This document shows positions 24,998-49,517 of a stretch of DNA of 64,000 nt, in pieces. Both the position numbers and the translations under genes were made by a program. The stretch is from a virus. Below the pieces are notes generated by a model. It saw only the letters and a program-made list of their open reading frames with translations, did not search any database and was not told where the DNA came from. Within the stretch, counting starts at the first letter, position 1. Every line of letters starts with the position of its first letter. Location: the IMG/VR virus record IMGVR_UViG_3300037011_001068, positions 41,757 to 105,756 of that record; one strand, given 5' to 3'.

Positions 24998-26029
24998 ATG
25001 CCAGTTAACGTCGTCAAGACACCGCGCGATGAACGGCTGTGGGACAAAGCAAAAAAGCAAGCGGAAAAGCAGGGGCACACGAAGGATTGGGCTTATGTGA
25101 TGGGGATTTACCAGCACATGAAGGGGATCTCCAAAAGCGAAGATCTCGGTAAGAGTATGGTTCTTCCACGGGCGGCAGAGTACCGCATTCCAGGTCAGGT
25201 GCCCACTCAGGCAGCGATTGCTTCCTTGGCCGGGCTCACAGCGAGGCCCGCGCCTATGAGTGAAGCGCGCTTCCTCGCGCAGAGTGGCCATCATTTTTCG
25301 GTCGATTCGGTGGTGCAGGGGCTCGGGTTGAATCTGCAGGGGCAAGCGTATTGGAAAAAAGCGCTTGAGGACATCATTTATGGAAGTAAAAATGAGCTTG
25401 TCCTCAAGCAGCGTTTGATCGAGAGGCTTATCCAAGAAAAGGCTGATCTCGGACTCCGGAAAGCGCTTTATGAGCGCGCGGTGATTCACTGGAAGGACAC
25501 GATCCAGAAATCGCTTGTTCAGGTGGTGCCTGTGGAGGAGCTTCAGGGGGAGGTACTCGAGAAGGCGGAGCCGCGGGGCGGGCAATATCATAAGCGCATT
25601 CCTCGAGGAGACGGTGGGTACACATACATCTATGATCCAGCAAAATACCAGGCGCGGAAGGATGCCCATGTGGACGGAAAAGAAGCGCGGAAGGGCCATA
25701 TTATAAGGCATATTGAGAAGCGGGTGCGGCGTGCAGGAAAGAATGGACTCCATATTTCGGAGCTCGCGGACTTGAGCACTAAGCATGGTGCGGATGCGGT
25801 CGCCGAGGTGCTGAAGGATCATTGTGACCGAGGTGTATTCGCGTTTGAGAAGGGGAGCGGGACTTTCACGCGAGCGCGCAATCGCTTTGTTGAGCGGCGG
25901 GGTCCGGTCGTGATCAATCTGGACAAAAAGAATCCCCGAAAGGGGAAAGGCGAGAAGCTACCGAAACCGACAACCAATTTGCCGGGGAGCAAGCCTGAAA
26001 ATGCGAGCCAGTATAAACCGAAAATTTGA
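24998..26029 (+). CDS. head-associated hypothetical protein
   Basis: several hydrophobic-x-K-S/A sites; LEKA followed by RGGQYHKRIP..YTYIY tag. Confidence 0.7.
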   Translation: MPVNVVKTPRDERLWDKAKKQAEKQGHTKDWAYVMGIYQHMKGISKSEDLGKSMVLPRAAEYRIPGQVPTQAAIASLAGLTARPAPMSEARFLAQSGHHFSVDSVVQGLGLNLQGQAYWKKALEDIIYGSKNELVLKQRLIERLIQEKADLGLRKALYERAVIHWKDTIQKSLVQVVPVEELQGEVLEKAEPRGGQYHKRIPRGDGGYTYIYDPAKYQARKDAHVDGKEARKGHIIRHIEKRVRRAGKNGLHISELADLSTKHGADAVAEVLKDHCDRGVFAFEKGSGTFTRARNRFVERRGPVVINLDKKNPRKGKGEKLPKPTTNLPGSKPENASQYKPKI

Positions 26030-29000
26030 GAAGTTTGTCCTTGCCAAGTGGAAGCAGCAGATCCCCGGTGGTCGCTCGAGTGGCAAGACGCCAGAGGATT
26101 TCGACCGGGAGCAGCTCGACGCTGGCCGGAAGGTGGAGATGGAGCACACGCGGGACCCGAAGCTTGCTACCGAGATTGCGATGGATCACTTGGCCGAGGA
26201 TAAGGACTACTACCGGAAGTTGAAGGTCATGGAAGCGAAAAAATCGGAGGATTCTAGCTTGCAGGGTGCGCTTGAGCGCTCTCTCGCGCAGCCGGTGGAA
26301 TTTCTGGATGGCTGGAGGGAGCTCGTGCCGGAGCTCGGGGCGGTGGTGTGGGGGGAATTCCAGAAGGCCTTCGGGCCGACAGCGGGAGCCGGGCCCGCGG
26401 CCGGGGGTGGAGCGCGGTCGCACAAGTATCTGAAGCGGGTTCCGTACAATTCCCCTGATGGGAAGCGTCATTATCGCTATTTTTACAAGGAGAGCGGTAT
26501 GACGCGGGAGACGGAAGCCGGGAGCGATGTGAAGCTCGGGCAGGGCATGGTGCATGTTCAGGCGGTGACTCCGGAAGGTCACGTTACGGTACAGGAGGAG
26601 GGGCAAGAAGCGCGGCAAATCAAGAGCCACGAGTGGCATGAGACGCTTGCGAAGCACTACGGGGAAGGCTATTTGAAGTCGGCCGAGAAGCGGGCCCGGC
26701 AGGTAATGAATGCGGTGCTCCGGCAGGTGCCGCGGAAGCTCCTCCAGGATCTTTTGGGCGAGACCGATGAAGCGCGGCTCGAGGATTTGAAGAAACGAGT
26801 GCCGGAGGTGTATCAGCGGCTCGATGAGTCTTTCAAGCGTGCAGGGATCTCTATTTTCCGGGCGAAGGAAATTCTGGGTGATGTTCTGCAGCGGCGGGGT
26901 TGGGAGCCGGATGCGCGGGCGGTAGTGATCGGGGCGGTGCTCACTGAGCAGGGCGTTAAGGCGGCAAGTGGGTATCGGAGCACCATGCGGGCGGCCGAGA
27001 ATTTGGCCGGCGACGGGCCGGTCCATGCTCAGCATGTCCAGGCGGCGCTTGAGCTCTGGGAATCCCCGGAGCCGAAGATTGAGGAACAGGCGACTCAAGA
27101 AGTAGGGCAGCTCCAGGCGCTCATGAAGGAGGCTTTCCAGGGAGGTGACCGGGCCAAAATAGCGGCGGTGCTCGCGCAGGCTTTGGCTTTTTCCTCGGAA
27201 GCTCTCCAGCAATTGTCCGCGGCAGGAATTGCTTACCCTGGCCTTTTGCAGGACCCGGTTATCAAAAAGGTGAGGGAAGCGCTCCTCCAGGTGCCGGCGG
27301 TAGCTCCGAAGGAAGCTCCCAGCTCGGATGGATCGGCGACGACGGTGTTCCTGGCTGGCGAGGGCGGGCAGGCGAAGGGCATGAAAGCCCACTACAAGCT
27401 CATGGAGGCCGAGGAAGCGATTGCCAGCCATGATCCCTCCAACGGGTTCAAGGTGAATTCCAAGTACCCTGAGGGTGTCCAGGAACGCGCGTATCACCGG
27501 GATTTTGGAGAACAGGATAAGGTGCGGCGAAATGCCAAGCGGCTTGAGCCGGCTTTTCTGGTTAACACGAATCCAGATGCGGTAAATGGGCCCCCGCTGA
27601 TCACTCATGATGGGATAGTCCTCGGCGGGAACAGCAGGACCATGAGCATGCAGCTCGCTTACCAGGAGCAGCCGGACCGGGCCGAGGCTCTTAAAAAGTA
27701 CCTCGGGGAGCACGCTCATGAGGTGGGTCTCCAAGCGGAGGATGTCCAGAAATTCAAGAATCCAATTTTGGTCCGTCAGCTTGAGCCTGCGAATTGGAGC
27801 AAGGAAGAGCTGCAATCGTTGGTCCGGAAGGCAAATGAATCTTTCACCCAGGCTATGGATCCGAGGGCGATGCAGGTAGCGCTCGCGAGAAAATTGGATG
27901 ACAAGGCGGTGGAGGCGCTATCGAGCGCGATGAACGAGGAGGAGACGCTTTCGGCGTTCCTTTCGAGCAAACGCGCAGAGCCTTTTCTAAAAAACCTCCG
28001 GCGAGTCGGTGTGATCGATGAGAGAAATGCTAATCAGTTTTTCTCTAGTAAAGGGGACAAACTGAACGAAGATGGAAAAACGCTCATCACGTGGATTCTG
28101 GTTGGGCGGATGGTGCCGGACGGGGACCTCCTGAATGAGACTCGCCCGAAGCTCATGGAGTCGGTCGCGCAGGCGGTTCCGAGCATGATCCACGCGATTG
28201 GGTTCGGCAAGGGTTATGACCTATCTGCATCTCTCCAGACGGCTATTCATGCGTACAATCGGATTCAGGATAAGATCGACAATGGAATTTTGAAGCCGTT
28301 AGATCCGGGCATGAGTGACAAAGACGTGAAGGTGATTCTGGACAACTATTTTTCGGATATGTTTGGCGAGAAGCACCCTATCCTTTCGGACGATCGCGCG
28401 CAGGAGCTCTTCAAGGTGTTCATTCGGAAGGCGGGCCCCAAGCAAATGGCCGGGGTGTTTCGAGAGTACGCGGACCTTGCTTCCAAAAATCCTGAAGGGC
28501 AGAAGCAGCTTTTGGGGGAGAATCTGTCTCCGGCTGAGGTGTTCAAGCGATCGATCGCTCTGGCATCGAAGAAGGAAAGCAAAGTGCAAAAGGCTTTATC
28601 TGGTGTACGCTTCATTTTAAAGAAGGCAGCGGGGCCTTTTATTGGCCCGCGCGGGGGCAAATGGGAAGATGCAGAGCACAAGATTTCCTGGAAGGATCGA
28701 GCGGATTATCACGATAGGGAAGTCCAGAAAATTAAACGGCGGTTGAGAGAGCGGCATGGTGGCGTTTTTTCCGAGTACGATGGATTGGGCGCGACAACCC
28801 CGAATAAATTGTTGATCGAGCGCGTTAAGCATAATGTCGCGGCAATGGCAGCGAGGAATTATCAGCGGGAGCCAACAAAAGAAGAGGTGGATTCCGCTGT
28901 AAAAGAAGCCACTAAGAAATGGGCCCCGCATAATCGAAGACTCCACGGGGTTGAAAAGAGCTTGACGAAGGCTGGTGGTCCTTATATTGGGCCCAAGGGT

Positions 29001-32000
29001 GGGAAGTGGGCGGACGTGAAGCATACCCAGCATTGGGATCCGGACGCTCCCAAGAGTGAGAAGAAAATCTATGTAATCGACGCTACAAAGAAAAAGGAGG
29101 AGGCGAAGCCGGCGGAACCAGAGAAAAAGCCAGAGAAGAAAGAGGAGCTGAAGGGTGAGGAGAAGGGAAAGACTCGCCAGCAAATGCTTCTTTTTTCAAA
29201 GCCTACGGCGGCTAAGCCTAAGGAAGAGCCAAAGGTGCAGACTATCCAGGAGAAGGCCGCGGAGCTCGGCGTGAAAGCTAAGGCGGCAGGCCTTCCGGGG
29301 AGCCCGGGAAAAGATGGGGAGCTTATGAAGCTTGTGGAGAAGCTATCCAGCAAAGAAACCCAGGATGCTCTTGTCGCTTGGATGGGCGCGCATGAGAAGA
29401 CCCCAGCGAAGTCTATAGAGAAGCCAAAGGAGGAACCTGAGAAGCCCAAAGAAGCCCCCGCGCCGGAACCGAAGGCGGAGGAGCCTGAGAAGCCGAAGTT
29501 CACGCTGGTCGCTCCCTCGGAGAAGGCGGAGGTGAAGGACAACATGACGGCAGCGGACGAGAAGATCGCGCAAGAGGTTGGAGAGCACGTCTGGGGTGCG
29601 CGGAAAGATCTCTGGGTAGCGCGAACCTCTGCAGACCTTCAGAAGCTCACCCCAGAAGAGCAGAGCAAAATCTCGACTAAAAAGAATCTCCTTCCGAAAT
29701 GGGAGACGGATACTTTGCTGGATGATGGGTGGGAGCCTGAAGCGATCGTGATGCGGCACGCGATCGAGAGCCTTGTTCAGAATGCACCTGGGAATACTTT
29801 GGAAGCGCGACAAGCGTACATGGACGGCATTGATTTTTTGGCGAAGAGCTTGGAAGAGTGCAGGACGCTCGAGGATATCAAGGGCTTTCTGGCTGATTGG
29901 GAGCATCTCCTTTTGAGGCAACGACGTGAAGCTACCCTGTCTATCGATGAGGCAGGGAAAGCGGTGGATGATTATTTTGAACATAAGCTAGGTAAGAAGC
30001 CTCCCAAAAATTACAAAGAGCGGAAGGAGCTTGATGATCGTTTTCGAGAGGCAAGAAGCAATAAATATCATGCGGCGTCTGTTGGGGACGCTGATTGGAA
30101 TAAATGGCTTATTAAAGAGCAGGAAATTGATAAAGAGAGGCGGGAAGCTCTCGATAATCAAAAATTTCAGATTGATGACGTGGTGGCTTGGAAGCTTAAT
30201 TTGCCCAAGCATGATCTCACTCTTCGGTTTGAGGAGAACGGGATCACAACCGTTTATCGGGCAGATCCAGAAATTGCGAAAGGGAAGGATAATCCCTACG
30301 CGCTAATGGCGGCGGCGCTCGGGGAACGGGTTGTGAAAGGGCTAGTGCGTAAATATCAAATAACGCGGCCGAAAGCGCTCATGGATGCAGAGCGTAGGGT
30401 TCGGAAGATGCAGGAGCTCGGGAGCGAGGAAAAGGAAAAGGAGCTTTTCGAGCACCTTCAGCAAAAGCAGCGGAAGGGCGGCCAGAGAATGAAGCCCTTC
30501 AAGTGGGAGCGGAATGTCCCTGGGGAGGTGGATCGTAAAGGTGGAAAGCCTGTCACTGCGGCAGATCCAAAAGCGCTTGCTTCGGATTTCAAATTCAAAA
30601 ACGTGCAATTCGGGAATTGGGTGAACGAACAAGATGCGGAAAGCCACCTAAAAGGGGCGCATGGAGCGCTCTTTGACTTGTCCGATGTGCTCGGGATTTC
30701 CCCAGAGGTGATTTCTTTGGGTGGTCGATTATCGATTGCCTTCGGTGCTCGAGGAAGTGGGAATGCTCTCGCGCACTACGAGACCATGGGAAAAATCATT
30801 AACCTCACGAAGATAAAGGGCTGCGGATCCCTCGCGCATGAGTGGGGTCATGCGCTCGATAATCTCTTGACCGTGATGGGTAACCCGCAAGGAACAGCGG
30901 CTCATCAATTTATCTCTGGCGGTGTGACAGCGGGTGTTCCTCAGGCGGTATCGGATGCCATGGAAGGGGTGATGGGGGCGATCCACTACAAGGATCCCTC
31001 GGTTCTTCAAAAGCGAAATAGAGCGCAGGATATGACGCAGCGGTGGGATTCTCTGAGCTACAAGGAGCGCCAGGAGCTCCGGCAGTTGCATAAAGAAATT
31101 GGGGCAGCCGAGCAGAGCCGTTATTTTCAAGACGCTTCCGTGTTTTCCAAGGCTCCGAATAGTTATTGGACGCGCCCGCACGAGCTTTTTGCGCGTGCTT
31201 TTGAGTCTTACGTGGAAGATACGCTTGTGGAAGCGAATCGAAAATCAAGTTACTTGGTCTCCGGGACTCGGGATCCTTATGAGACTGGGCGGCACAGCGC
31301 GGCATCGGGGGAGGAACACGCGCAAACCTTTCCTCAAGGGGAGGAGCGCAAGGGCATCAACAAAGCAATCCAGAAATTGATCGGTGTGCTCAAGCAAGAG
31401 AAAGCGCTCGAGAAGGCCTTACAGGCGCTTGAGGCGCAAGAAAGGAACTGTGCTATGAGTAGGATACTTTCCATTGATGAGTACCTTGCGAAGGCCGAGC
31501 AGGGGCTTCCCAAGGGGGAGCCAGGGTTGACGGACAGCGAGAAGGACGGAGGTGAGCTCGCGGGAGTCGGCCAGGCGTCTGGAGCGACGAGCGGGAGCGC
31601 GGGGAGTGAAATCGGTGCGCCTGTCCCGAAGACCAAAAAGCTCTCCGAGGATGACGAGGAAGACGAGGAACAAATGAAGCCGGGCAAGAAGCCTCTGGAG
31701 GCCTCGGTGGGGAAGTCCATGGCGGTTCCCCAGCATCAGCGGGATCTGGTAGCGCATGAGAACGCGCAGGTGGTCTCCCAGCTCCGGAAGGGCGAGGAGG
31801 ATATCGTGGTCGGTATGGGGCAGGTGCTTCCGGAGGAGCTGGCGCCGGAGGGCGAGAAGACGAAATTCTGGACCCAGGGAGAAAAGGCCATGATCGTATA
31901 CTCGAACGCGCTCGACATCCGGACCGAGAAGCTTCTGAAGGGGGATGCCTTCTATGCGAATGGCGAGCCCTCGGTGGGCATGGGTAATGCACTCATGGCT

Positions 32001-32207
32001 TCTCATCGACGGTGCTCTCAGTGCGAGCGGATGCTTTTGAAGAGCCTTTCTGCGTGCCCACACTGTGGGTTTGGCGCGCAGCTCCTCGCGGTGCAGCCAA
32101 TGGCATTTGAGGGCCGATCGCGAATCGAGAAGGGAATACATCCGTTGCAGCCGGCGCGGCATGAAGCGGATCTTGTGCTCCCTCAGGGGACCAAAGTGGC
32201 GAGGTGA
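26001..32207 (+). CDS. giant polyvalent protein: DUF5661-like, ddrB-like ParB, LPD1 (HExxH)
   Basis: VEMEHT..EIAMDHL.E..DYY; IASHD..QER..NGPP..GGNSR; QFGNW..LSIAFGARG..AHY..SLAHEWGHALD..ELFARAFE. Confidence 0.8.
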   Translation: MRASINRKFEKFVLAKWKQQIPGGRSSGKTPEDFDREQLDAGRKVEMEHTRDPKLATEIAMDHLAEDKDYYRKLKVMEAKKSEDSSLQGALERSLAQPVEFLDGWRELVPELGAVVWGEFQKAFGPTAGAGPAAGGGARSHKYLKRVPYNSPDGKRHYRYFYKESGMTRETEAGSDVKLGQGMVHVQAVTPEGHVTVQEEGQEARQIKSHEWHETLAKHYGEGYLKSAEKRARQVMNAVLRQVPRKLLQDLLGETDEARLEDLKKRVPEVYQRLDESFKRAGISIFRAKEILGDVLQRRGWEPDARAVVIGAVLTEQGVKAASGYRSTMRAAENLAGDGPVHAQHVQAALELWESPEPKIEEQATQEVGQLQALMKEAFQGGDRAKIAAVLAQALAFSSEALQQLSAAGIAYPGLLQDPVIKKVREALLQVPAVAPKEAPSSDGSATTVFLAGEGGQAKGMKAHYKLMEAEEAIASHDPSNGFKVNSKYPEGVQERAYHRDFGEQDKVRRNAKRLEPAFLVNTNPDAVNGPPLITHDGIVLGGNSRTMSMQLAYQEQPDRAEALKKYLGEHAHEVGLQAEDVQKFKNPILVRQLEPANWSKEELQSLVRKANESFTQAMDPRAMQVALARKLDDKAVEALSSAMNEEETLSAFLSSKRAEPFLKNLRRVGVIDERNANQFFSSKGDKLNEDGKTLITWILVGRMVPDGDLLNETRPKLMESVAQAVPSMIHAIGFGKGYDLSASLQTAIHAYNRIQDKIDNGILKPLDPGMSDKDVKVILDNYFSDMFGEKHPILSDDRAQELFKVFIRKAGPKQMAGVFREYADLASKNPEGQKQLLGENLSPAEVFKRSIALASKKESKVQKALSGVRFILKKAAGPFIGPRGGKWEDAEHKISWKDRADYHDREVQKIKRRLRERHGGVFSEYDGLGATTPNKLLIERVKHNVAAMAARNYQREPTKEEVDSAVKEATKKWAPHNRRLHGVEKSLTKAGGPYIGPKGGKWADVKHTQHWDPDAPKSEKKIYVIDATKKKEEAKPAEPEKKPEKKEELKGEEKGKTRQQMLLFSKPTAAKPKEEPKVQTIQEKAAELGVKAKAAGLPGSPGKDGELMKLVEKLSSKETQDALVAWMGAHEKTPAKSIEKPKEEPEKPKEAPAPEPKAEEPEKPKFTLVAPSEKAEVKDNMTAADEKIAQEVGEHVWGARKDLWVARTSADLQKLTPEEQSKISTKKNLLPKWETDTLLDDGWEPEAIVMRHAIESLVQNAPGNTLEARQAYMDGIDFLAKSLEECRTLEDIKGFLADWEHLLLRQRREATLSIDEAGKAVDDYFEHKLGKKPPKNYKERKELDDRFREARSNKYHAASVGDADWNKWLIKEQEIDKERREALDNQKFQIDDVVAWKLNLPKHDLTLRFEENGITTVYRADPEIAKGKDNPYALMAAALGERVVKGLVRKYQITRPKALMDAERRVRKMQELGSEEKEKELFEHLQQKQRKGGQRMKPFKWERNVPGEVDRKGGKPVTAADPKALASDFKFKNVQFGNWVNEQDAESHLKGAHGALFDLSDVLGISPEVISLGGRLSIAFGARGSGNALAHYETMGKIINLTKIKGCGSLAHEWGHALDNLLTVMGNPQGTAAHQFISGGVTAGVPQAVSDAMEGVMGAIHYKDPSVLQKRNRAQDMTQRWDSLSYKERQELRQLHKEIGAAEQSRYFQDASVFSKAPNSYWTRPHELFARAFESYVEDTLVEANRKSSYLVSGTRDPYETGRHSAASGEEHAQTFPQGEERKGINKAIQKLIGVLKQEKALEKALQALEAQERNCAMSRILSIDEYLAKAEQGLPKGEPGLTDSEKDGGELAGVGQASGATSGSAGSEIGAPVPKTKKLSEDDEEDEEQMKPGKKPLEASVGKSMAVPQHQRDLVAHENAQVVSQLRKGEEDIVVGMGQVLPEELAPEGEKTKFWTQGEKAMIVYSNALDIRTEKLLKGDAFYANGEPSVGMGNALMASHRRCSQCERMLLKSLSACPHCGFGAQLLAVQPMAFEGRSRIEKGIHPLQPARHEADLVLPQGTKVAR

Positions 32208-33988
32208 TAAGCATGAGCTTTTTCGAGGACTTCACGGGGTTCGGGCTGACCACGCTCGGGGCCCTGGGTGGCATGGTGCAGGAGTGGGCGCAAGGCGCGT
32301 TATTAAAAGGTCCGGAAGGATCGGATGAAGAAGAAAAGCGCAGCTCGCAAGGCTCGGATACTGCCCCCGGCGGTAAGCGAGCGGACAGCGCGGAGTCAAA
32401 TCCTGTTCCAGAGGAGAAGGCCTCAAGCGACCCAAAGGCGCTTTTTTGGGATCCCTTCGCGATTATTGAGCAGTTGGGCTACAAGGACAGGCCTTCGCAA
32501 ATCAGCTATGGAACGCTGAAAGCGATGGCCTGGAAAACCCCTATCGCGCACGCGGTCATCCAGACACGGGTGAATCAAATTTCTGGATTTAGTCATGTGC
32601 AACATGATCGGTATCAGATGGGTTTTCGGATTAAAACCCGTGAGACTGAGAAAGAGCCCACGAAGGCGGAGCGAAAATGGATCCAGCAAATGGAATCTGT
32701 GATATTGCGGACAGGTGTCACGGATCATCCGAGGGGGCGAGACGGCTTCAAAGAGTTTCTCAAAAAAGTTACCTGGGATTCCCTTGTGTACGATCAAATG
32801 TGCTTTGAAATCGTGCAGAATCGCAAAGGGCAGCCGGCGGAGTGGTATGCGGTGGACGGTGCCACCATTCGGCGGGCCGACACGGCGAGTACCTTCACGG
32901 ACGAGGATCATACGAAGGCTATCCGGTATGTGCAGATCTACGACGGACTTGTAATCGCGGAGTACACTCAGGATGAACTATGTTTCGCAATTCGGAATCC
33001 CAGGACGGATATTCGGCTTTTTGGGTATGGCATTTCTGAGCTTGAAATGCTTGTGCCGGCGGTAACCTGTATCCTCTATGCCTGGGAGTACAATCAGCGT
33101 TTTTTCAGCCAGGGGTCAGCGGCGAAGGGAATCATTAACTTCAAGGGTGCGGTTCCAGAAAAGCAACTGCAGTCTTTTCGCCGCCACTGGTATCAAATGA
33201 TTTCAGGCGTTGAAAATGCATGGAGAACGCCTGTCACAAATGCCGAGGATCTCCAGTACATTAATCTCCAGCAATCCAGCCGGGACATGGAGTACAATTC
33301 TTGGATGGATTTTTTGATCAAGGTGGTTTGCGCGATGTATGCCATGGATCCGGCAGAGCTCAATTTCAAGTACGGGAACGTTGGGCAGCGTGGAGGGCTT
33401 CAGGAGAGCTCCAATCGGGAGAAAATTACGGAGAGCAAAGAGCGGGGTCTCAGGCCGCTTCTCCGGTTCATCGCGGATGCCATCAATTTGCACCTTATCT
33501 GGCCCATCAACGAAAATTTTGAATTTGATTTTGTGGGCCTGGACGCGCAAACCAAGGATGAAATGGCCGAGCTTTCTGCAAAGCAGGTGCGCGTATATAA
33601 AACTGTGGATGAGATTCGCGCGCAGGACGATCTTCCTCCACTTCCGGATGGCCTCGGAGAAGTGCTGCTCGACCCCACGTGGTATCAGTACGCTCAGCAA
33701 AAGCAGGCGCAGGCGCAGCAAGCAGAGAACCCCCAGGGACAAATGGGGGAAGGTGAGCCAGAGGGCGGAGCTCCTGGCGGGGAGCAGGGCGGTGAAGAGC
33801 AGGGAGGGGGAATGGACTTCAAAAAGCTCCTCCAGCAGTACGGGCAAGGCGGGGGAGAGAAGCCGGAGGGCGGGAGCAAGAATGCGGTAGAGCCTGCGAA
33901 GCCTGCGGTTCCGGCTAAGGCAGCAGCTCCTCAAGTAGCGAAGAGCTTCGGGCAAGGCAAGAAAATTTTTATCGATCTAACCCTGTGA
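32204..33988 (+). CDS. portal protein
   Basis: DSLVYDQMCFE, NPRTD..GYGISELE, DMEYNSW, MDPAEL, GLRPLL as in SPO1/K-type portals. Confidence 0.9.
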   Translation: MISMSFFEDFTGFGLTTLGALGGMVQEWAQGALLKGPEGSDEEEKRSSQGSDTAPGGKRADSAESNPVPEEKASSDPKALFWDPFAIIEQLGYKDRPSQISYGTLKAMAWKTPIAHAVIQTRVNQISGFSHVQHDRYQMGFRIKTRETEKEPTKAERKWIQQMESVILRTGVTDHPRGRDGFKEFLKKVTWDSLVYDQMCFEIVQNRKGQPAEWYAVDGATIRRADTASTFTDEDHTKAIRYVQIYDGLVIAEYTQDELCFAIRNPRTDIRLFGYGISELEMLVPAVTCILYAWEYNQRFFSQGSAAKGIINFKGAVPEKQLQSFRRHWYQMISGVENAWRTPVTNAEDLQYINLQQSSRDMEYNSWMDFLIKVVCAMYAMDPAELNFKYGNVGQRGGLQESSNREKITESKERGLRPLLRFIADAINLHLIWPINENFEFDFVGLDAQTKDEMAELSAKQVRVYKTVDEIRAQDDLPPLPDGLGEVLLDPTWYQYAQQKQAQAQQAENPQGQMGEGEPEGGAPGGEQGGEEQGGGMDFKKLLQQYGQGGGEKPEGGSKNAVEPAKPAVPAKAAAPQVAKSFGQGKKIFIDLTL

Positions 33989-33995
33989 GGATCCC

Positions 33996-34382: not shown

Positions 34383-34395
34383 TGGAGGATAAGTT

Positions 34396-41300: not shown

Positions 41301-42715
41301 GTGAGACTTATCGGATGCTGGTGGTTCCCAAGGAGCATTGGATAGCAGCCAGCGAGAAGCTCGAGGGAGGAATCCCTGTGGCTTCAGAATTTACTCCGAG
41401 CGCACCTTTACCGGCAGCGCAAGAAATTGCAGAAGACGGGACGGTAGTATTCGCAGATCTTTCCACGGTAAAGCAGCTTTCGATCTTGCAAGGCGCTTCC
41501 AAGGCATCTTTGAAGGTGCCTTCAAAGGCGAAAGATGTGATCCAGCAGGGCCAGGTGGTGGAAGCTATTTTTCATGATGGGAGTTCCGGGGAAGGCAAAG
41601 TAGTGGGAACGGATCCTCGAGGAGATTTTTTGGTTCAGCGTAATGGCGTGAAGCTTGCCCGTAAAAGTAATGTGAAGCGAAAGGGCAAAGAGGAGTACAA
41701 ATCGGTTTATGAGGGCGTGAGCGAGAAAAACATTTTTAAGCCTTCTCCACGGCAACAAACGCTCCTTCGGCAGTTGTTGACCGAAGAAAAAGTCGTCGGT
41801 GAGCATGTGGCTCAAGAGTACCTTGATTGGCTGTGGAACCACGGGCACGAAGCGTTTGTCGTCGGCGGCGTTGTGCGGGATATGTTGCACGGGACAATTT
41901 CTGGATCAGACTTGAGCGATAAGCAGGTGTTCGAGAGCATGAAGGACGTGGATCTCGTAACGTCGGCGAGCCCACCGGAGATAAAAAGGATGTTCGAGGA
42001 GATCAATAAAGAATTTGGAGATCTTTCTGTGACCGTGGATGCTCATCCTTGGGGCGTTTATTGCCATCAAGGTGCGGGCCTTGGGTTGGATGTGAGCTCC
42101 ATGGTACATTCCGGGACCAATGATTTTCATCGTGCGAATATAAAAGAACACGCGCTTTATCCCAACGAAAAAATCAAAATCGAACCCCCCTCGATTTTCG
42201 ATCACAAGCTGCTCAAGGATATGATGCGTCGGGATGCGGCATGCAATTCCCTTTATTACGATGCTCAGAATGAGGTGATCGTGGATCCTTCGGGGCATGG
42301 AGTGATGGACGCTGAAAATGGGGTAGCAAGGATTGAGGGGTCTAGGGAAGATCATCAGGACAATCGACCAATTCTTTTTCGTTTCTTGAAGCTCATCGAA
42401 AAGGGAGCTATCCCGGATAAAAAGTCTTGGGATATGGCTCGTGAGGTTTTCAAAGATCAAATGATTCATATGACCCCTTTGCAGAGAGCTCATATTATTT
42501 ATCAGGTATGGGGTAAAAAAGAAGGCGTGACTGCCAAAGATGCGCTTGAGAAATGCATCAAGGCTTGTAAGGCAGGTGGATGCTATGTGCTCTTCCGAGA
42601 ATTTTTTAAAAATGATGCTTTCACGCTTCTCATTCTTGCGGAGAAAATTAAATCATATCAAGATGCCAAAGAAGAGGTGCGTGCTAGAGTGAAGAAAGCG
42701 GTGATGCATGTTTAA
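38363..42715 (+). CDS. MuF-like head protein fused to inorganic-pyrophosphatase-like and tRNA nucleotidyltransferase/poly(A) polymerase-like domains
   Basis: RIAVTE, ACERC, HPNCQC; IEN..GS.R..YGYI..T.GAD.DEIDVF..DEEKVMLGF; VVGGVVRD, DVD, RRD..NSLYYD. Confidence 0.85.
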   Translation: MLLSPRQLQEIQKIIQTYHEAFIVNAISVEAVAPEILEKLKKKGLVHATVKSIEEAYLYGQLLALLENPKVAKMSYEDFKKYLRKHPIPLTPVERQGIQMAIQSAGQYCRGLGNKVNLATGAVLIEADQKLRAKMVGVIQNKVAENIMKRQTIQDLRSDLGWATGDWARDFHRIAVTEKQAAMLEGQANHIQKRHGPEAWIAKRPMPGACERCKALYLGPDSHPRIFKLTTLAAHGTNAGRKASEWLPTVGPIHPNCQCVMTRVPQGWGFNEEGQLIPGGAGGKHYEDEGKLQLAMLREADLRKSYQFDRDFDFQGIPIVIENHVGSMRTWRAANGETGTTEMLHAYGYIPGTTGADQDEIDVFLGPDPEAEYAFLVHQQNPENGLYDEEKVMLGFSNQELAEEAYRQHYTHPDTYLLTVSPMDIEAFKRWILMTRPVEGFQKSGLRLVLPLEKARGPFIGPRGGLWADPEHKEHWDPEAQKNVSTEEKESGNPEKKEEMDEKETWKITAVEDLRPIDWVSGKRAPLHAGEGNTCDRCGKEHAIIYHMQSSSGKVLAVGSGCGPRLVGGAGLIDKESKKKAEKDLKAREVRIAENMVSGWFLRGLQELDKVAPFSKLTLKEIPVDADAISFHLNKIKTRWIALDEAGKEWARQRGIVQTSEDIEGLASEERIRFEVTRVLDTLKVPVTKEWKWDIEFPFESPGYWVRDRLHERLTSYLARRLLSPLHPGLRLLAKHDLFTAEKLQEMKERAMEFEAFPQGRPLEKGGTDSMISVGDSQWENRNVVSGHAVNFIMRSPKNHKKTDPITMQDYFPTLDEFAHEHMENEMWRRDPKVYEVEEPVPRQVRPVKVTSGQKPETEEEVTRRKKKLIQRFVMNMGRPKNTPLEKALPPTIKKIGVHGGKIIGWGRGMKPIYLGQGGQDKRSAVHTWAESHGGKVSPVRGQEEHPDPEALVIKVPPHKVQHLEQFKEEHGIPGSTFGGETYRMLVVPKEHWIAASEKLEGGIPVASEFTPSAPLPAAQEIAEDGTVVFADLSTVKQLSILQGASKASLKVPSKAKDVIQQGQVVEAIFHDGSSGEGKVVGTDPRGDFLVQRNGVKLARKSNVKRKGKEEYKSVYEGVSEKNIFKPSPRQQTLLRQLLTEEKVVGEHVAQEYLDWLWNHGHEAFVVGGVVRDMLHGTISGSDLSDKQVFESMKDVDLVTSASPPEIKRMFEEINKEFGDLSVTVDAHPWGVYCHQGAGLGLDVSSMVHSGTNDFHRANIKEHALYPNEKIKIEPPSIFDHKLLKDMMRRDAACNSLYYDAQNEVIVDPSGHGVMDAENGVARIEGSREDHQDNRPILFRFLKLIEKGAIPDKKSWDMAREVFKDQMIHMTPLQRAHIIYQVWGKKEGVTAKDALEKCIKACKAGGCYVLFREFFKNDAFTLLILAEKIKSYQDAKEEVRARVKKAVMHV

Positions 42716-43164: not shown

Positions 43165-43166
43165 CA

Positions 43167-46100
43167 ATGCTCGCTACACAGCTCACGGCTCCTAAATGGG
43201 TCCATACGTCTTTTCAGAAGGCTGGCGTGAAAACCAAGCCCATGAAACTCGGGTTGGGAAGCTGGAAAGGCTTGAGCATCATTGCCATTGGGCCCAAAGG
43301 GGGCCGTATCATTGGGTATGGGCGTTTCCACAAGGCCATTTATGCTGGTAGTGCTATCGCCGAGCATTTGGTCGCTTTGCGAGAAGAGGCGGCTGCTTCC
43401 AAAAAGTGGACCCCCAGCACAGAAATCCAGAAATTAGTGGAGTGGCTTACTGAGCTCGGGATTGACGGGAAGGCCTTTAAGGATCGGGTGGAGGTGGAGG
43501 AGGACGCTGGAAAGCTTCTCGGTCAGTCTTTCAGTGTTTACGGAAATACTGAACCTGGAAAGAAGCTCAGCTTCAAGGTAGCAGAGCTCCTCCCGCATAT
43601 CGGTGAGCCCTTGAAGCCCGCTGAGAATGAAGCGCTCTCCTACGCGGCCGAGGTGGCGAGTGGGCAGTTCCAGGAGGAGAAGCTCTTCCCGGATCTGAAG
43701 ACGCTTGAGCCCGTGCCTCTTGAGGGGGTGTATGCGAAATATGCTGGGAGCCACGGGAACAAGCTCTTTCGGGATCCAGAGGAAAGGCTCTGGATTTTCA
43801 AGGCCGCGAACCCCATTATCGCTCGAGCAGAGGAGGCAGCTAATCGGGTTGGGCGACACATCCTCGGGGACAAGTTTCCGCCCGCCAAGTACGTCCAGCT
43901 CGGAGGCAAGGATGGTGTCTTGATCGGGGAAATGCTCGGCGAGGTATGGCAGGAATCGAGCGCCATGCATTCTCACCCCCCTCTGAATCTTCTCAAAGAA
44001 CATCGGCTTGAAGTGCTCCAGCATGAAATTCTGGATTGGTTGCTCGCGAACCACGATAGTCACGCCGGCCAGTTCCTTTCGCATGAAGGGGAGCTCATTG
44101 CAATCGACAAAGGGCAGGCCTGGAAATGGATCGGTGAGGACACTTTTCATCCTGGGTTCAAGGGGCAGAATCCAAGCGATCCGATTTACAAGAAATTTTG
44201 GGAGCAGGTGAAGTCTGGGAAGATTTCGAGCGAAGGTTTCGTGGAGGCGGCGCTCGAGGTTATTGAGCGATGGCGGCAGATCCCTGTAGAGCAGTTTCGC
44301 TCGATCGTCGCTCCTTACGTGGTTACCTTGGCAGGGGGGACGCACAAGGAGCCCGAAGAAATCGCTAAGAAGCTTGAGGCTCGCTTCCTGTCCTTGGCGA
44401 AGGACGTGGAGGGGTTTTTGAGCGGGCAGCTCGGGCAAGTAGTCTCCTTCGGGGGCGTGCAGCCTATCGAGCCTACGACCGAGACTCTGCCTTCCCCTCT
44501 GAAGCTTGCACCCTCTCCCAAAGAGCCGGAATTGCCCATTCAAGCGATTCCAAAGCCCCCCCTGGCTGGACCCCTCTCCGTGGCAATAGAGCCCTCCTCT
44601 GCCCTTTCCGTGGCTTCTCAGTGGCCCATCACGAAAGGCAACGAAAAGGGGAAGGTGACTGTGACTTCTCCGGGCGTGAAGCCTCCTGCGAGCTGGCCGG
44701 CGGGAATCCCGGGGGCAGGGTTTATGCAGGACATCGTTTACAAAAAGGAGGCCTACAAGCTTTCCATTTTCGAGAAAGGCGGGAAGGTATCCTTCTTGAT
44801 TCAGTACCCTGACGGCACGTCGAATACGTGGCCTTCCATCAATCAGGCAGGGGATTCTTTGTACCTGTACGCGAATAAGCTTCCCATTTCCATGGGGGCC
44901 AAGGATAAAAAAGAGAAGGGGATTTCTCTGGGTTCCAAGGTCTTTCGGTTCGAGCAATTCAAGGCGGAGCTCGAGGCTGCTTATGGAATGCCTTCCGTGG
45001 CGGTGGAGAGCCCCCCTTCCAAGGCGAAAAGCATAAAGCCGCTTGCGGAGTCGATTACGGTCCAGACCCCCAAAGAGCTTGAGCAGGCGAATATCATTGA
45101 ACCGGGGCAAAAGAATCTCCCCTTTTATGAAGTGGCAGAGAAACTTCCCGCGTGGGAAGAAGTCGATCCTTCGGTGATGCCTCCAGAGGTACAGGAATTG
45201 ATCGATCAAATGGATGCGAGTATAACCTCTTATCCTGATGTCTGGGATGCAGCGATCTTTCCTGGAAAAGTGGTTAAGATTTTATTGAATACTACGGGAA
45301 AGCCAGGGTTCTTAATTGGGGATGTAAAGCAAGGAAAGCCTGTTTATCATATTTATAAGCAAGATCCCCAGGGGAACTATACGATAGGCTCTCCGATGAA
45401 CGCGGAAATTTACGATACTGGCTTTGATTTGTATTCAAAGCTTGGATCGAAAGGGCTAGAAGAGGAACCTTATGATCCGTTGAAGGTGCTTATGGAAGGA
45501 CCAAAGGCAGGGAAGGAAAAACCTTCGGAAGATAATTTTGAGACTATGCCGGAAAAAGAAGCGCAGCCGATCCAATTTTCTGGAAAGACGGCAAATGAAC
45601 ACATGAAGGTCGCGGTAGCGTTACCGGCCGGGACGATTATAACGCTCACTCCAGCAAAATGGCCGGATGTACCTACAGTGAATTTCGTCAAGAATGAAAA
45701 GGGATCGTGGCACCCTTTTGATACGGCAACGCAGGCTCCACTGGAAAAAGAAATTTTTTCATCCAATATGATTGGAGTAATTGTCAATAGCATGCTCAAG
45801 AATGGCGGCTTGGTTGTGCATTCTATGGGTGCTATCAAGAAGCCCGCACCCAGCAACTTTGAGACTATGCCTGAATCTGTGTATCAGCCAAAAGCTGGAG
45901 TGCCGAAGCTTGCAGATATAGAGTCGGCGGAAGAGGGGGCGGAGATCAAGTTACAAACAGAAGGGCAGGATGCTCCCACGGTTTTTACTAAGACCCAGGG
46001 AGAGTGGTGGGTATTGAATCCTGGAGCCAATAAGCATGAGAAGGTGACTTTTTCGGAGGTGTTCCTAGCGGATGTTTTGGACACGGCGAGTCAGAATTCC

Positions 46101-49100
46101 AATATTACAGTCAAAGGAATGAGTTTAGGGCAGGAAAAGAAGCCTGCTCCGGATAACTTTGAGACCATGCCGGAAGGGTTGCCTACTGAATTTAAACCAA
46201 ATAAATGGAAAAATTCTCAAAAAATAGTAAATGCTCTTTTGCTCGCTCCTCTTGATACTAAGCTTGAAACGAGTAAGTATATCGCTACGCTTGTTCCTAC
46301 ACTGGGTGGAGGAAATGTTTGGTATATAAAATATAAAGATGCTGCTTACGGAGAGGATGTTACAAGTTCCCATTCTTCGATGGCATGGGATATTTCTATT
46401 CTTAAAGAACCTATGAAAGTTATTCTTCCGGAAAAAGTAGAAGAGCTTCCTGAATTGAAGACCATGGAAGAAAAACAAAATTTTTGGAAAGATCAACCAT
46501 GGGGTGGAACGTTGGAAGTTTGGTCTGTAAATCCTTCTGGAGATCTTTTTTCTTATGCACCGCTCGGGACCGCTATTGCCGCTCCAAAGCCGGGGGATGC
46601 TTCAGGCATGGCTTTAACAATTTGGCATAAAGGTAAAGGTGACCACTGGTATACTATAGGTTATGCAATAAGCTCACAGGCACTTTCTACACTACTCCAA
46701 CCTATTGTAAAAGCAAAAAAGAAGGCTCTCATCCTAAAAGGAGCTCCTGCTATTGCTGGCCTTATTAAAGATTGGCCCAATATTCAGAACATCACGCAAG
46801 ACATTCCAATCAAGAATCCCTCGAAAATATTTCCAGGATTTTTGAGTGTAGCTCCTTTGGGAGCTCGCCTTACTTCTTATAAGCTCTCTACTGGCGGGAA
46901 AGTGGAGAGTCAGATGTTTGTAAAAGAAGATGGGGAAAATTGGAAAAATATCTTTACGCAAGATATTATAAATAACTATTTTGTAACTCAGCTCATGAAT
47001 ACGCAGGATGAAGTTTTTATTTATCTAGGAGGTATTCCTGGGAGCACTCCAAAGCCAACAATAAAAAAACTTGTACCTAAGCTCGTGCATGCCAAGGATG
47101 CAATAAAAATGCATGAGGCAATCAAAGCTTCAGGTGGTACGCTCAAGATCAAACCTAACTCCACTGATTCAACGGTGGCCTATGTTTGTTTGGACAACGT
47201 GATAGAGGGAGATGCGGCAAAAATACTGAATTCTGCGCTTTTGGAATTAAACCTTTCCCAGCATGTCTTGAATTTTCAGCAGTATCCTAAAACGAATAAA
47301 TTCGGTGCTTTTGTGGCGATTCCTTTTTCCCATCTAGAAAATCCCGTGGAGATACAGGTGGAGGAGGGTGAACAAGTTCCTTCTGAACCGCCTGATCAAG
47401 TGGAGGAAAAGCCCCAGAAAAAAAAGCCTAAGAAGCTCTCCAAAAAAGAAATCCAGAAAATGGCTGCAGCAAAGCAAAAAATCGAAGAGCAGAAGGTATG
47501 GGCAATAGCGCACCCGACGGTGAAGGATCCAGAAACCTTCCTTCTCCTCGCGCACTTCCAGAAGCACATGGATAAGTGGTTTTCTGAAAGTCCCTGGTAT
47601 GCGCGGGTGGAAAACGAAGGGGAGACCATCTTCCTGCAGCCGAAGAGCTTCCCTGAAGATTTTCCGGCGGTCATGAAAAAGCAGTTCCCTCTTGCGGAAC
47701 AGGTGGAGACCATCCATGGGCCCATGATGCGGGTCTCTCTCCAGTCGCTCCGGGATCGCTATCCCGAGGCGCTCCCCGTAAAAGGCCCGGATGGTAAGCT
47801 CTATCCTGTGGGGACCACTTTCCAGACTGAAAAGACTTCGGTGACCGTGGGGGACCTTTTAAAAACCGAGCCTGGATTCCATAGCATGGTCCCGCATACC
47901 TCTATGCCGGATTACATGGTGCTCAAAGTGGCTGGAACGGGAGCGAGCCAAAAAGAGCAGCTACATGCTATCGTCCAGAAATTTGGGTTACACCCACTTT
48001 TCACAGAGCCGAAACAAACATCGAGCTCCTGGATGCATTATTTTCTCAAGAAAGAGATCGATAATTCATGGAAAGAGGAGGAGAAGCTCGTGGTGCTCCC
48101 TGGGGAATCCCCCTCTCCCCTTCGCCTGGCTCCTTTGCCCTCGGGGACGACCACCACGGAGCATTGGGGGGAAGTGGGGGATAATCGTGCGGAGCTCGGG
48201 TTGTTGGAAGCTGTGAAAATTCCTTTGTACGGACACGTAATTCGGATTGGCAAACCGGGGATACTGACAGATTTTCAGGTGAACATCCGAAAAGTGAAGA
48301 CCCTTTCAGGGGATCTTGTTTACGAGGTGACAGGAGATCTTCTCGAGTTCAAGGCTCAGTCCAGCAAATTGAATCCTACCTCTAGTATTCCTCTGACTTC
48401 GGCAGCTTCGCAATTGTTCGCGCCTTTGGGAAAATTAAAGACCATTGAATACGATGCAGAGACCGGGGTGCATGACGAAAGCAAGAGCCCTGGGGAGATC
48501 ATGAGCCTCTCTGGTTTTCAAGGAACCGTGCGTGATGGAAAAACCGTGGTCCAGGTGATTCAAGATCCTTCTCAGCAAACCATGAATGGCACTTTCAAGG
48601 TGCGAATCCCGGTGGGGGATAATGTGGAGGAAGCACTCGGCGAAGCTTTTGAAGCGATGGGTTACAACGCCGCGGAGGCACTCTCCCCTATCGATGAAAA
48701 AAGCGATCGGATTTTTAAAAAGTGGTCTATCCTTCGCTCGACATTAGGACCATTGGCTTTTGGGCAGTCCGATGCTGCTATACCACGGAAGCAGCGGCAT
48801 GATGAGAAGTACCTGGATACACAACTTGATAAACTCGGCGTCCAGAAATTGGTTCCTACCGCGAAGGTACAGCGGATTTTTCAAAGCAAAGTCACGGTAA
48901 CGGTAGCGGGTGAAGAGCATTTCAAGGAGCATTGGTCTTGCCCTTATGTGGGAACAAAATTTCCTTCCGTCATAATTCAGCTCGCGCAGGGTGCTGGGTG
49001 GGCAAGTCGAAAAGAGCGTTATCTGAAGGGTGTAGATACGGATGGAAAAAGTAAAGGTGAGGATTTTCAGACTGGCGGGGCTGCGGGTGTTTTTTGCCGT

Positions 49101-49517
49101 ATCGCTGGGTCACAGGCAAAGATCAATCCAGCGTATGCTTATAATGTAGTATTCCATCCTCGCTTGTTTAGACGAACAGACTGGTATCACTATAATGATG
49201 ATCATTTTGGCGTGATTGCTCCTAATACCTTCAACACCATGGGTCCGCAGAAGGGAAGGTTGAGTGCAGGACCTATCACTAGCGTAGGAAATGAGATCAT
49301 CTTTCAAGGGGGTATGGACATTCGAGATATCGTAGGAATCATGTGTACGAGCCCTGAATCGGCAACTTCTTTGAAAGAGAAGCTTATCAGCATGGGAATA
49401 ACAGAGATCAATGGGGCTTCATTAGATGCTGCAATTAAGTACATTCCGCCGTATGAAACAACAGGCAGCAAATTTTTAAAGGTATTTCACATCAAAGAAG
49501 ATCCAGAGGAGGCATGA
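43167..49517 (+). CDS. giant polyvalent protein: HipA/PI3K-like kinase, repeat modules, putative ART-fold C-terminus
   Basis: WIFK, DWLLANHDSHAGQ, IAIDKG; three NFETMPE repeats; GGAAGVFCR..NEIIF..I.DI.GI. Confidence 0.7.
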   Translation: MLATQLTAPKWVHTSFQKAGVKTKPMKLGLGSWKGLSIIAIGPKGGRIIGYGRFHKAIYAGSAIAEHLVALREEAAASKKWTPSTEIQKLVEWLTELGIDGKAFKDRVEVEEDAGKLLGQSFSVYGNTEPGKKLSFKVAELLPHIGEPLKPAENEALSYAAEVASGQFQEEKLFPDLKTLEPVPLEGVYAKYAGSHGNKLFRDPEERLWIFKAANPIIARAEEAANRVGRHILGDKFPPAKYVQLGGKDGVLIGEMLGEVWQESSAMHSHPPLNLLKEHRLEVLQHEILDWLLANHDSHAGQFLSHEGELIAIDKGQAWKWIGEDTFHPGFKGQNPSDPIYKKFWEQVKSGKISSEGFVEAALEVIERWRQIPVEQFRSIVAPYVVTLAGGTHKEPEEIAKKLEARFLSLAKDVEGFLSGQLGQVVSFGGVQPIEPTTETLPSPLKLAPSPKEPELPIQAIPKPPLAGPLSVAIEPSSALSVASQWPITKGNEKGKVTVTSPGVKPPASWPAGIPGAGFMQDIVYKKEAYKLSIFEKGGKVSFLIQYPDGTSNTWPSINQAGDSLYLYANKLPISMGAKDKKEKGISLGSKVFRFEQFKAELEAAYGMPSVAVESPPSKAKSIKPLAESITVQTPKELEQANIIEPGQKNLPFYEVAEKLPAWEEVDPSVMPPEVQELIDQMDASITSYPDVWDAAIFPGKVVKILLNTTGKPGFLIGDVKQGKPVYHIYKQDPQGNYTIGSPMNAEIYDTGFDLYSKLGSKGLEEEPYDPLKVLMEGPKAGKEKPSEDNFETMPEKEAQPIQFSGKTANEHMKVAVALPAGTIITLTPAKWPDVPTVNFVKNEKGSWHPFDTATQAPLEKEIFSSNMIGVIVNSMLKNGGLVVHSMGAIKKPAPSNFETMPESVYQPKAGVPKLADIESAEEGAEIKLQTEGQDAPTVFTKTQGEWWVLNPGANKHEKVTFSEVFLADVLDTASQNSNITVKGMSLGQEKKPAPDNFETMPEGLPTEFKPNKWKNSQKIVNALLLAPLDTKLETSKYIATLVPTLGGGNVWYIKYKDAAYGEDVTSSHSSMAWDISILKEPMKVILPEKVEELPELKTMEEKQNFWKDQPWGGTLEVWSVNPSGDLFSYAPLGTAIAAPKPGDASGMALTIWHKGKGDHWYTIGYAISSQALSTLLQPIVKAKKKALILKGAPAIAGLIKDWPNIQNITQDIPIKNPSKIFPGFLSVAPLGARLTSYKLSTGGKVESQMFVKEDGENWKNIFTQDIINNYFVTQLMNTQDEVFIYLGGIPGSTPKPTIKKLVPKLVHAKDAIKMHEAIKASGGTLKIKPNSTDSTVAYVCLDNVIEGDAAKILNSALLELNLSQHVLNFQQYPKTNKFGAFVAIPFSHLENPVEIQVEEGEQVPSEPPDQVEEKPQKKKPKKLSKKEIQKMAAAKQKIEEQKVWAIAHPTVKDPETFLLLAHFQKHMDKWFSESPWYARVENEGETIFLQPKSFPEDFPAVMKKQFPLAEQVETIHGPMMRVSLQSLRDRYPEALPVKGPDGKLYPVGTTFQTEKTSVTVGDLLKTEPGFHSMVPHTSMPDYMVLKVAGTGASQKEQLHAIVQKFGLHPLFTEPKQTSSSWMHYFLKKEIDNSWKEEEKLVVLPGESPSPLRLAPLPSGTTTTEHWGEVGDNRAELGLLEAVKIPLYGHVIRIGKPGILTDFQVNIRKVKTLSGDLVYEVTGDLLEFKAQSSKLNPTSSIPLTSAASQLFAPLGKLKTIEYDAETGVHDESKSPGEIMSLSGFQGTVRDGKTVVQVIQDPSQQTMNGTFKVRIPVGDNVEEALGEAFEAMGYNAAEALSPIDEKSDRIFKKWSILRSTLGPLAFGQSDAAIPRKQRHDEKYLDTQLDKLGVQKLVPTAKVQRIFQSKVTVTVAGEEHFKEHWSCPYVGTKFPSVIIQLAQGAGWASRKERYLKGVDTDGKSKGEDFQTGGAAGVFCRIAGSQAKINPAYAYNVVFHPRLFRRTDWYHYNDDHFGVIAPNTFNTMGPQKGRLSAGPITSVGNEIIFQGGMDIRDIVGIMCTSPESATSLKEKLISMGITEINGASLDAAIKYIPPYETTGSKFLKVFHIKEDPEEA

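Follow-up and report, generated by a model that had tools for sequence, protein, structure and literature searches.

By what means do phages load giant polyvalent proteins into their heads, and how are these proteins split into working parts? The question is posed by a stretch of 64,000 nucleotides (nt), referred to here as the window, which covers bases 41757–105756 of the 105,756-bp IMG/VR phage record IMGVR_UViG_3300037011_001068 (CheckV completeness 98%). The window holds the head module of this phage, and everything described below lies on its + strand. Three otherwise unrelated giant proteins encoded there, P0001, P0002 and P0003, share a short peptide, tag A, which stands closely behind an L-x-K|A sequence (the bar marks the candidate cut). 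We favour, with a probability of about 0.55, the view that these are capsid-loaded polyvalent proteins, which would be cut at their junctions by the prohead protease of the phage and whose modules would each keep a hairpin as a docking handle.

Tag A is about 22–25 residues long and follows the pattern G-P-F/Y-I-G-P-R/K-G-G-x-W-A-D-x-x-H-x-x-x-W. Scanned in six frames, the window proved to hold exactly four copies, with the L of L-x-K-A at nt 28617, 28962, 34666 and 39716. Together with their sites they form four cassettes:

28584–28697, + strand: cassette 1 of P0001, in which tag A follows a double site (VQK|A, LKK|A)
28950–29042, + strand: cassette 2 of P0001, in which tag A follows a double site (VEK|S, LTK|A)
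34666–34746, + strand: cassette 3, in P0002; LEK|A, then tag A
39683–39796, + strand: cassette 4 of P0003, in which tag A follows a double site (FQK|S, LEK|A)

When all proteins of the phage were compared with one another by BLASTP, the tags were the sole significant similarity among the giant proteins (E = 1e-13 to 6e-6). The sequences that follow the four copies differ, being respectively an ~85-residue module, a K/E/P-rich linker with an HExxH peptidase and LPD1, an SNF2 helicase and a Cys-rich module. A first-pass annotation, made from the sequence of the window, had placed four tags at these positions, each behind L-x-K-A and ahead of different sequence in three otherwise unrelated proteins, and both the scan and the BLASTP comparison agree with it. 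Third codon positions are identical in only 33–62% of the conserved residues of tag A. Because these positions have diverged, we conclude that the copies are conserved at the peptide level and are under selection; for the same reason an origin as a DNA-level repeat or recombination site is ruled out.

AlphaFold2 modelled the tag (38 residues, 120-sequence alignment) as a small β-hairpin in which F-I and K-W flank a P-R-G-G turn, at a predicted local distance difference test score (pLDDT) of 80–88, a short model of moderate confidence. The site region upstream of the tag was poorly ordered (pLDDT ~53). The tag belongs to no family in Pfam or PHROGs, and a profile search against PDB sequences returned only a chance lectin match (E = 0.48). 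Our literature search found no description of the tag, of the motif strings or of such a site-plus-hairpin cassette.

We then considered how closely tag and site are linked outside this phage. Scanning IMG/VR with a pattern confirmed 136 matching stretches. A profile lacking the L-x-K-A part, run again over the fetched loci, yielded 136 non-redundant copies, whose consensus reads [AGK]-G-P-[FY]-I-G-P-[RK]-G-G-K-W-A-D-[AP]-x-H-[TK]-I-x-W. A site of the form [LIVMF]-x-K-[AGS], below φ-x-K-[AGS], occurred within 12 residues upstream of 127 of these 136 copies, compared with 6.3% of background windows, and in 107 of 116 after those matching the KA-containing search pattern had been dropped. A profile search of 1.84 billion cluster representatives gave 800 tag proteins at E ≤ 1e-3 (535 at E ≤ 1e-10), most of them hundreds to thousands of residues long with 2–5 copies apiece. 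The best 149 of these 800 representatives, with 343 tag copies, served as an independent set; the site was present at 319/343, so that the frequency is 93% in both samples. Within the 149 representatives the median distance from tag to tag is 280 residues, internal tags are conserved like first tags (39.6 vs 39.3 bits) and 46 proteins open with a leader of 5–23 residues, then a site, then a tag.

The arrangement of the sites around the 136 copies is informative. The K lies between –8 and –3 relative to the aromatic anchor of the tag, second sites are enriched at –20 to –11, and sites are depleted, nearly absent, from 0 to +90 residues after the tag. Because the offset varies, second sites occur upstream and depletion follows downstream, we regard the site as separate from the hairpin. 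The scarcity of sites over the ~90 residues downstream also argues that cutting would not remove the hairpin.

The same site precedes two further tags. Tag A occurs four times in the phage; tags B and C occur twice each. The consensus of tag B is I-G-P-R-G-G-K-I-V-G-Y...P-I-Y-A-G, and it is located in P0003 and at the start of a fourth giant protein, P0004; that of tag C is H-K-Y-I-R-R...Y-x-Y-x-Y, located in P0001 and, in degenerate form, in a small protein, g343:

41015–41110, + strand: in P0003; LEK|A, then tag B (IG.HGGKIIGWG....PIYLG)
43212–43349, + strand: at the start of P0004; FQK|A with tag B
26358–26486, + strand: in P0001; FQK|A, then tag C (HKYLKR...YRYFY)
25556–25639, + strand: in g343; degenerate tag-C-like header, LEK|A, then PRGG..Y.Y.Y

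A K|A-type site stands in front of tag B in 7/7 copies found, and a site lies within 30 residues upstream in 27 of 29 non-redundant tag-C copies from related proteins. The module behind tag B of P0003 is homologous to a module that is headed by tag A in a related phage, and all three tags are alike in being basic and aromatic with a Gly-Gly turn. Because one and the same site precedes three tags, and tags A and B head homologous modules, the hairpins look interchangeable and the site is the constant element. A bolder extension, which we put forward tentatively and hold to be doubtful as it stands, is that any of hairpins A, B and C could stand in for the others as a portable address peptide of A511-type capsids and, with L-x-K|A, would suffice for any protein to be loaded into the prohead, released by the prohead protease and delivered to the host along with the DNA.

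The identity of the site is best approached through the major capsid protein (MCP), which along its entire length shares 37–40% identity with the capsid proteins of Herelleviridae. In RefSeq the mature capsid protein of A511 is annotated (mat_peptide) as starting at residue 24, that is, after a cut at K23|S24. A511 K23 aligns with K32 of QLNK|ALAAG in the MCP of this phage, so that LNK|A (residues 30–33, nt 52116–52127) is the predicted maturation cut, K32|A33. L-x-K|A-L occupies the aligned position in the MCPs of 24 of 26 tag-bearing phages and in that of a SPO1-like phage. Covariation between MCP and tag sites at the residue preceding the cut (P1) was uninformative as a further approach, because the K is nearly invariant.

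The motif is also abundant in the scaffold and the protease. Counts of φ-x-K-[AGS] are 12 in the scaffold, seven in the protease, two in the portal and one in the MCP. Relative to the number expected from composition, the excess is clear for the scaffold (12 vs 1.3, P = 2e-8), the protease (7 vs 1.7, P = 0.002) and P0001 (21 vs 10.9, P = 0.004), with the rest of the genome at ~1.06-fold expectation. The scaffold, as the open reading frame (ORF) just upstream of the MCP, is enriched in 26/26 tag-bearing relatives and in the SPO1-like phage (11 vs 1.1); over 28 phages (the 26 relatives, SPO1L1 and A511) the count is 285, where 35.5 would be expected. For the form [L/I/M]-x-K-[S/A/G] the excess in the scaffolds of this phage and its 26 relatives is 8- to 9-fold. 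An unbiased scan of 25 scaffolds showed enrichment at P1 for Lys alone (263 vs 31.7), with a preference of L > I > M at P3 and of S > A > G at P1'. The junction sites match this MCP and scaffold motif in their P3 Leu, P1 Lys and small P1' residue. The His (NDNH) and Ser (GLSVEG) motifs of the protease align with those of the A511 and SPO1-like proteases, and its similarity to Pfam Peptidase_S78 falls below the cut-off (E = 0.064). Of 28 tag-bearing records, 26 have homologues of protease and MCP, and all 14 complete ones are among them. Taken together, these comparisons provide strong indirect evidence that [L/I/M]-x-K|[A/G/S] is the specificity of the prohead protease. The apparent interchangeability of tags A and B, the alignment of the MCP to the A511 cut and the unbiased scan of scaffold specificity are the main additions of the present analysis.

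These data bear on the idea that the cassette is not cut at all, L-x-K-A being instead the first part of one structural or docking unit that includes the hairpin, and the giant proteins being packaged intact. Some copies have a conserved R-F/L-V-L-(P-L) strand ahead of the K, and this could form a third strand of the sheet; large virion proteins, moreover, can be packaged uncut, as one article (PMC5512222) records for the N4 virion RNA polymerase. A single unit fits poorly, however, with a spacing between K and hairpin that ranges over 3–8 residues, with sites that are often doubled and precede three unrelated tags, with the disorder of the site region in the AlphaFold2 model, and with a site that matches both the MCP cut position and the motif enriched 8-fold in scaffolds. 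We judge packaging of intact proteins to be improbable.

If the junctions are cut, the enzyme might instead be a metallopeptidase embedded in the cargo, or a host protease. P0001 does contain HEWGH beside LPD1, and the same article argues that such peptidases split polyvalent proteins into units (PMC5512222). An HExxH metallopeptidase of the P0001 type was detected in only 5 of the 14 complete tag-bearing genomes, whereas prohead protease and MCP occur in 14/14; this makes the embedded enzyme unlikely as a general processing activity. The junction motif, moreover, equals that of MCP and scaffold, both of them classical prohead-protease substrates. We therefore consider cutting by an enzyme other than the prohead protease very unlikely.

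The protease has a further feature after its catalytic domain: nt 50745–50870 encode a copy of the MCP segment that lies behind the cut, φ-x-K|[ST/A]-L..G...G.G..R.ESLE. The copies in the proteases of the related phages G009 and G022 closely resemble the MCP N-arm (E ~1e-7), and G012 also carries one. The resemblance suggests that the protease trims itself and is targeted to the capsid by mimicry of the MCP N-arm. That cargo might be addressed in the same way was rejected, because in the 13 head modules scanned the mimic occurred in protease C-termini and in no cargo ORF. One exception emerged from another search, in which a 186-aa ORF in the cargo region of phage G018, which the scan also covered, between the g128-like and MuF-like genes, matched N-arm residues 50–95 (E = 1e-8); it may represent an alternative address element.

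The genomic setting of the tags is that of phage heads. A head-module homologue lies within 6 kb of the tag in 73 of 76 viral loci, and it includes a portal in 52. In 13/13 fetched head modules the tagged genes all lie between terminase and protease, with 1–8 tag-A copies per module, and the modules are recombined differently among the giant proteins. Among 185,579 reference genomes only seven real tag loci were found, all of them in metagenome-assembled genomes (MAGs) of Lentisphaeria, Myxococcales, Acidimicrobiia and Sedimentisphaerales, and head context was present in 7/7; these lineages may point to the hosts of such phages and to an inducible prophage. The MAG loci include L140 on a Myxococcales chromosome (CP070713.1, ~557–573 kb), L137–L139 in Lentisphaeria, L142 in Acidimicrobiia and L143 in Sedimentisphaerales. 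No conjugative-element context was seen among the seven.

In the phage studied here the order on the + strand is TerL with an intein, g343, P0001, portal, a 128-aa protein, P0002, P0003, P0004, protease, scaffold and MCP, with the portal gene nested among the cargo genes between TerL and the protease–scaffold–MCP block:

22372–24933, + strand: large terminase subunit (TerL) with an intein, the upstream border of the head module (Pfam Terminase_6C, Intein_splicing, LAGLIDADG_3)
24998–26029, + strand: g343, a small tagged protein of 343 aa with six φ-x-K-[AGS] sites against 1.9 expected
26001–32207, + strand: P0001, a polyvalent protein of 2068 aa with DUF5661, a DdrB-type ParB, two tag-A cassettes, HExxH, LPD1 and a C-terminal Cys motif (Pfam, PHROGs)
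32204–33988, + strand: portal protein (Pfam Phage_portal, 2e-27; phrog_12)
34396–37806, + strand: P0002, 1136 aa, with an N-terminal leader of ~90 aa, cassette 3 and an SNF2 helicase (Pfam SNF2-rel_dom, 4e-24)
38183–42715, + strand: P0003, 1510 aa, with a MuF-like region, InPase, cassette 4, a Cys-rich module, a tag-B cassette and a PolyA_pol-type nucleotidyltransferase (Pfam InPase, 2e-35; PolyA_pol, 1e-12)
43167–49517, + strand: P0004, 2116 aa, with a tag-B cassette at its start and no family match in Pfam or PHROGs
50190–51047, + strand: prohead (head maturation) protease, the proposed cutting enzyme, with seven φ-x-K-[AGS] sites (phrog_1028, 1e-34)
51058–51969, + strand: scaffolding protein with 12 φ-x-K-[AGS] sites
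52029–53462, + strand: MCP, A511/SPO1 type (phrog_752, 1e-80)

Homologues of g343 are present in 10 related loci. The two candidate sites of the portal lie near its ends, LLK|G at nt 32300–32311 (residues 33–36) and VAK|S at nt 33935–33946 (residues 578–581). The leader of P0002 (residues 1–90, nt 34396–34665) is a conserved helical domain with a conserved internal LEK|ALP (nt 34507–34524). It tops one giant protein in 19 related loci, always upstream of the first tag A, and may be a propeptide. The ddrB-ParB match of P0001 is strong (Pfam, E = 1e-17). The MuF-like region of P0003 contains HPNCQC (nt 39122–39139) and matches phrog_595 weakly (E = 4e-5) and Pfam Phage_Mu_F only at E = 0.37.

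Some further elements were noted in these genes. The terminase intein contains a LAGLIDADG homing-endonuclease domain (22372–24933). In P0001 the zincin motif HEWGH (nt 30837–30851) lies upstream of LPD1 and a CxxC...CxxC motif (nt 32013–32066) lies at the C-terminus; in P0003 the module after tag A opens with a Cys-rich CxxC...GCG element (nt 39965–40051). None of the three has a family match. P0004 contains an acidic motif, (S/P)-E/x-D/S-N-F-E-T-M-P-E, three times (nt 45534–45554, 45855–45875 and 46155–46175). The NFETMPE motif recurs in at least five related loci (L015, L024, L057, L058 and P0055), there too in giant proteins, and has no K|A site in front.

The cargo is diverse. Segments behind the tag match 16 Pfam families, and most segments match none. 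Among the families are InPase, Zeta_toxin with an overlapping AAA_33, SNF2, topoisomerase IB, DarA_C, ART-PolyVal, DUF5661, C5 methylase, RelA_SpoT and SAM lyase. It could be argued that such proteins are cytoplasmic late enzymes rather than virion cargo, with the tag as a linker or oligomerization peptide that has nothing to do with the capsid; the infected cell is a place where SNF2, nucleotidyltransferase and pyrophosphatase activities could act. The genes, however, always lie between terminase and protease–scaffold–MCP with the portal nested among them, their junctions carry head-maturation sites, and DdrB-ParB, DarA_C, InPase and the weak MuF-like match are typical of virion-delivered proteins (PMC9024508, PMC5512222). 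Of the explanations considered here, a purely cytoplasmic role seems to us the hardest to credit.

The first-pass annotation had proposed more than the four tags. Its counts of the motif in scaffold and protease, at both portal ends and at LNK|A of the MCP are borne out, as are its expectations that across homologues the tag would follow the hydrophobic-x-K site and precede diverse domains in head modules. Its appeal to A511-type cutting after Lys is supported by the position of the motif at the site homologous to the annotated A511 capsid cut and by the strong enrichment in scaffolds. It had also pictured polyproteins with a common tag; the link of site and tag, the head context and the diversity of cargo stand, but the constant part proves to be the site, which is combined with at least three hairpin tags. 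The further claim, that packaged polyproteins are cut into effectors which start with an ejection or targeting tag, would fit the match of the junction sites to the capsid and scaffold motif; it needs restricting in that P0002–P0004 are not uniformly cleavable.

The following sequence of events would account for these findings. Genes between terminase and prohead protease would encode polyvalent cargo that is built into the prohead. Their modules would be joined by a two-part cassette, a protease site [L/I/M]-x-K|[A/G/S] followed 3–8 residues on by a hairpin; the site, often doubled and in a disordered stretch, would be the same as that which trims the MCP N-terminus and recurs in the scaffold. 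Inside the prohead the A511/HK97-type serine protease of the phage would cut the junctions and release modules of ~60–1000 residues, each starting with A, G or S plus the small, basic-aromatic hairpin, which would be kept on the module. The predicted bonds follow K875 and K990 of P0001, K93 of P0002, K514 and K947 of P0003 and K18 of P0004, and at tag A the new N-termini would read (A/G/S)-G-P-[F/Y]-I-G-P. The hairpin would most likely be a docking handle that holds the module to an internal head component during assembly, and it may also serve in co-ejection with the DNA. Packaging, cleavage and the partner of the hairpin are what we infer here, the first of these because of the gene position, the DdrB-ParB, SNF2 and InPase domains, the weak MuF-like region and the precedent of the Dar proteins of phage P1.

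Docking in the prohead is our first choice for the role of the hairpin, and a role during ejection or after entry is its serious rival, because every internal module keeps a conserved tag that is not removed. The rival accepts that junctions are cut and has the hairpins act as DNA-riding handles or as docking peptides for host targets. Each module keeps its own tag, internal tags are as well conserved as N-terminal ones, sites are depleted downstream, and a basic, aromatic character and a Gly-Gly turn are common to tags A, B and C; loading alone would need just one tag per polyprotein. We found no similarity to a known DNA-binding or host-docking motif in Pfam or in the PDB-sequence profile search, however, and the confinement of the tags to head-module genes fits a role in assembly at least equally. 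Genes that each had a tag of their own may also have fused, which would account for the many tags retained, given that 46/149 proteins start tagged. We regard a role confined to ejection or later steps as unlikely, if still worth taking seriously.

Several observations weigh against cutting and docking in the prohead as we propose them. A role in loading only leaves the conserved tag on every internal module unexplained, because the tag would remain with the product. Taken as a whole, P0002–P0004 are not enriched in sites, many of which fall within folded domains, as at the GxGKT nucleotide-binding motif of the SNF2 helicase; the motif alone thus does not predict a cut, and these three proteins are not uniformly cleavable polyproteins. 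The two remaining MCPs of the 26 have N or S in place of the K, yet their tags keep K sites. The A511 scaffold is not enriched (2 vs 1.4). The MuF assignment in P0003 is weak, and the hairpin model has the shortness and moderate confidence stated above. Finally, tblastn of one tag copy against 50,697 GenBank phage records gave chance hits only, so that no cultured carrier of the tag is known.

None of the nearest precedents (T4 with gp21, P1 DarB, SPN3US gp245 and the polyvalent proteins), in the passages searched, describes this cassette. The polyvalent proteins of Iyer, Burroughs, Anand, de Souza and Aravind (2017) are similarly giant, combine disparate domains (DdrB-ParB, SNF2, InPase, LPD1, HExxH), are encoded beside portal and terminase and are predicted to be injected with the DNA (PMC5512222). 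The passages searched attribute their processing to embedded metallopeptidases, and neither a cassette at the junctions nor a hairpin tag nor any junction site matching the capsid and scaffold motif of the prohead protease was found mentioned in them (PMC5512222).

In T4 a short portable peptide with a prohead-protease site (the targeting sequence of IPI–III and Alt, cut by gp21) likewise marks proteins that are loaded and injected (PMC9024508, PMC10052503). The T4 signal, however, is N-terminal to the cut and is discarded, and the cut falls after Glu and is made by a protease of another family (PMC9024508, PMC10052503). Here the predicted cut follows Lys and the cassette recurs inside polyproteins; a signal N-terminal to the site, and removed, is not what we find, since the site is upstream and sites are depleted for ~90 residues downstream. 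Because the cut lies upstream of it, the tag would stay on the product, unlike that of T4.

Phage P1 packages very large anti-restriction enzymes, the Dar proteins, in its head, and a reporter is loaded when it carries just the first 30 residues of DarB (PMC9024508). The likeness extends to the DdrB-type ParB found here and to DarA_C, which stands behind the tag in related phages. Of the Dar set, ddrB-ParB and SNF2 are present in the window; a methylase and DarA/Hdf were not found there, DarA_C occurs in relatives only, and a 'DarB-like' phrog match arises via the InPase region. The capsid protein of P1, by contrast, is cut after Glu, at E120|S121 (PMC9024508). Repeated internal tags are also not known in the Dar proteins.

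In SPN3US (gp245) and the PhiKZ family one protease cuts many internal and ejection proteins at a single short motif, propeptides hold several copies of that motif and the protease trims its own C-terminus (PMC10052503). The motif there is A-X-E and the products lose long N-terminal propeptides, whereas a shared hairpin tag and polyprotein junctions are not described (PMC10052503). The A511/SPO1-type Herelleviridae share with this phage a homologous MCP and protease and the order protease, scaffold, MCP; their cultured members differ in lacking both the tag and giant tagged proteins in the head module.

How giant polyvalent phage proteins become loaded and split is the question that the junction cassette addresses. 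For a clade of uncultured 100–110-kb phages, and with a scope of ~800 protein clusters, it offers a concrete, testable rule, with predicted neo-N-termini, a defined enzyme and defined peptides. If the hairpin turns out to serve as an address, this type of capsid would have a natural protein-loading tag, and there would be a sequence marker by which injected anti-defence enzymes could be recognized in metagenomes. If the hairpins are indeed portable, they would constitute a modular grammar of cargo loading, and this would explain how polyvalent proteins are assembled by the shuffling of modules.

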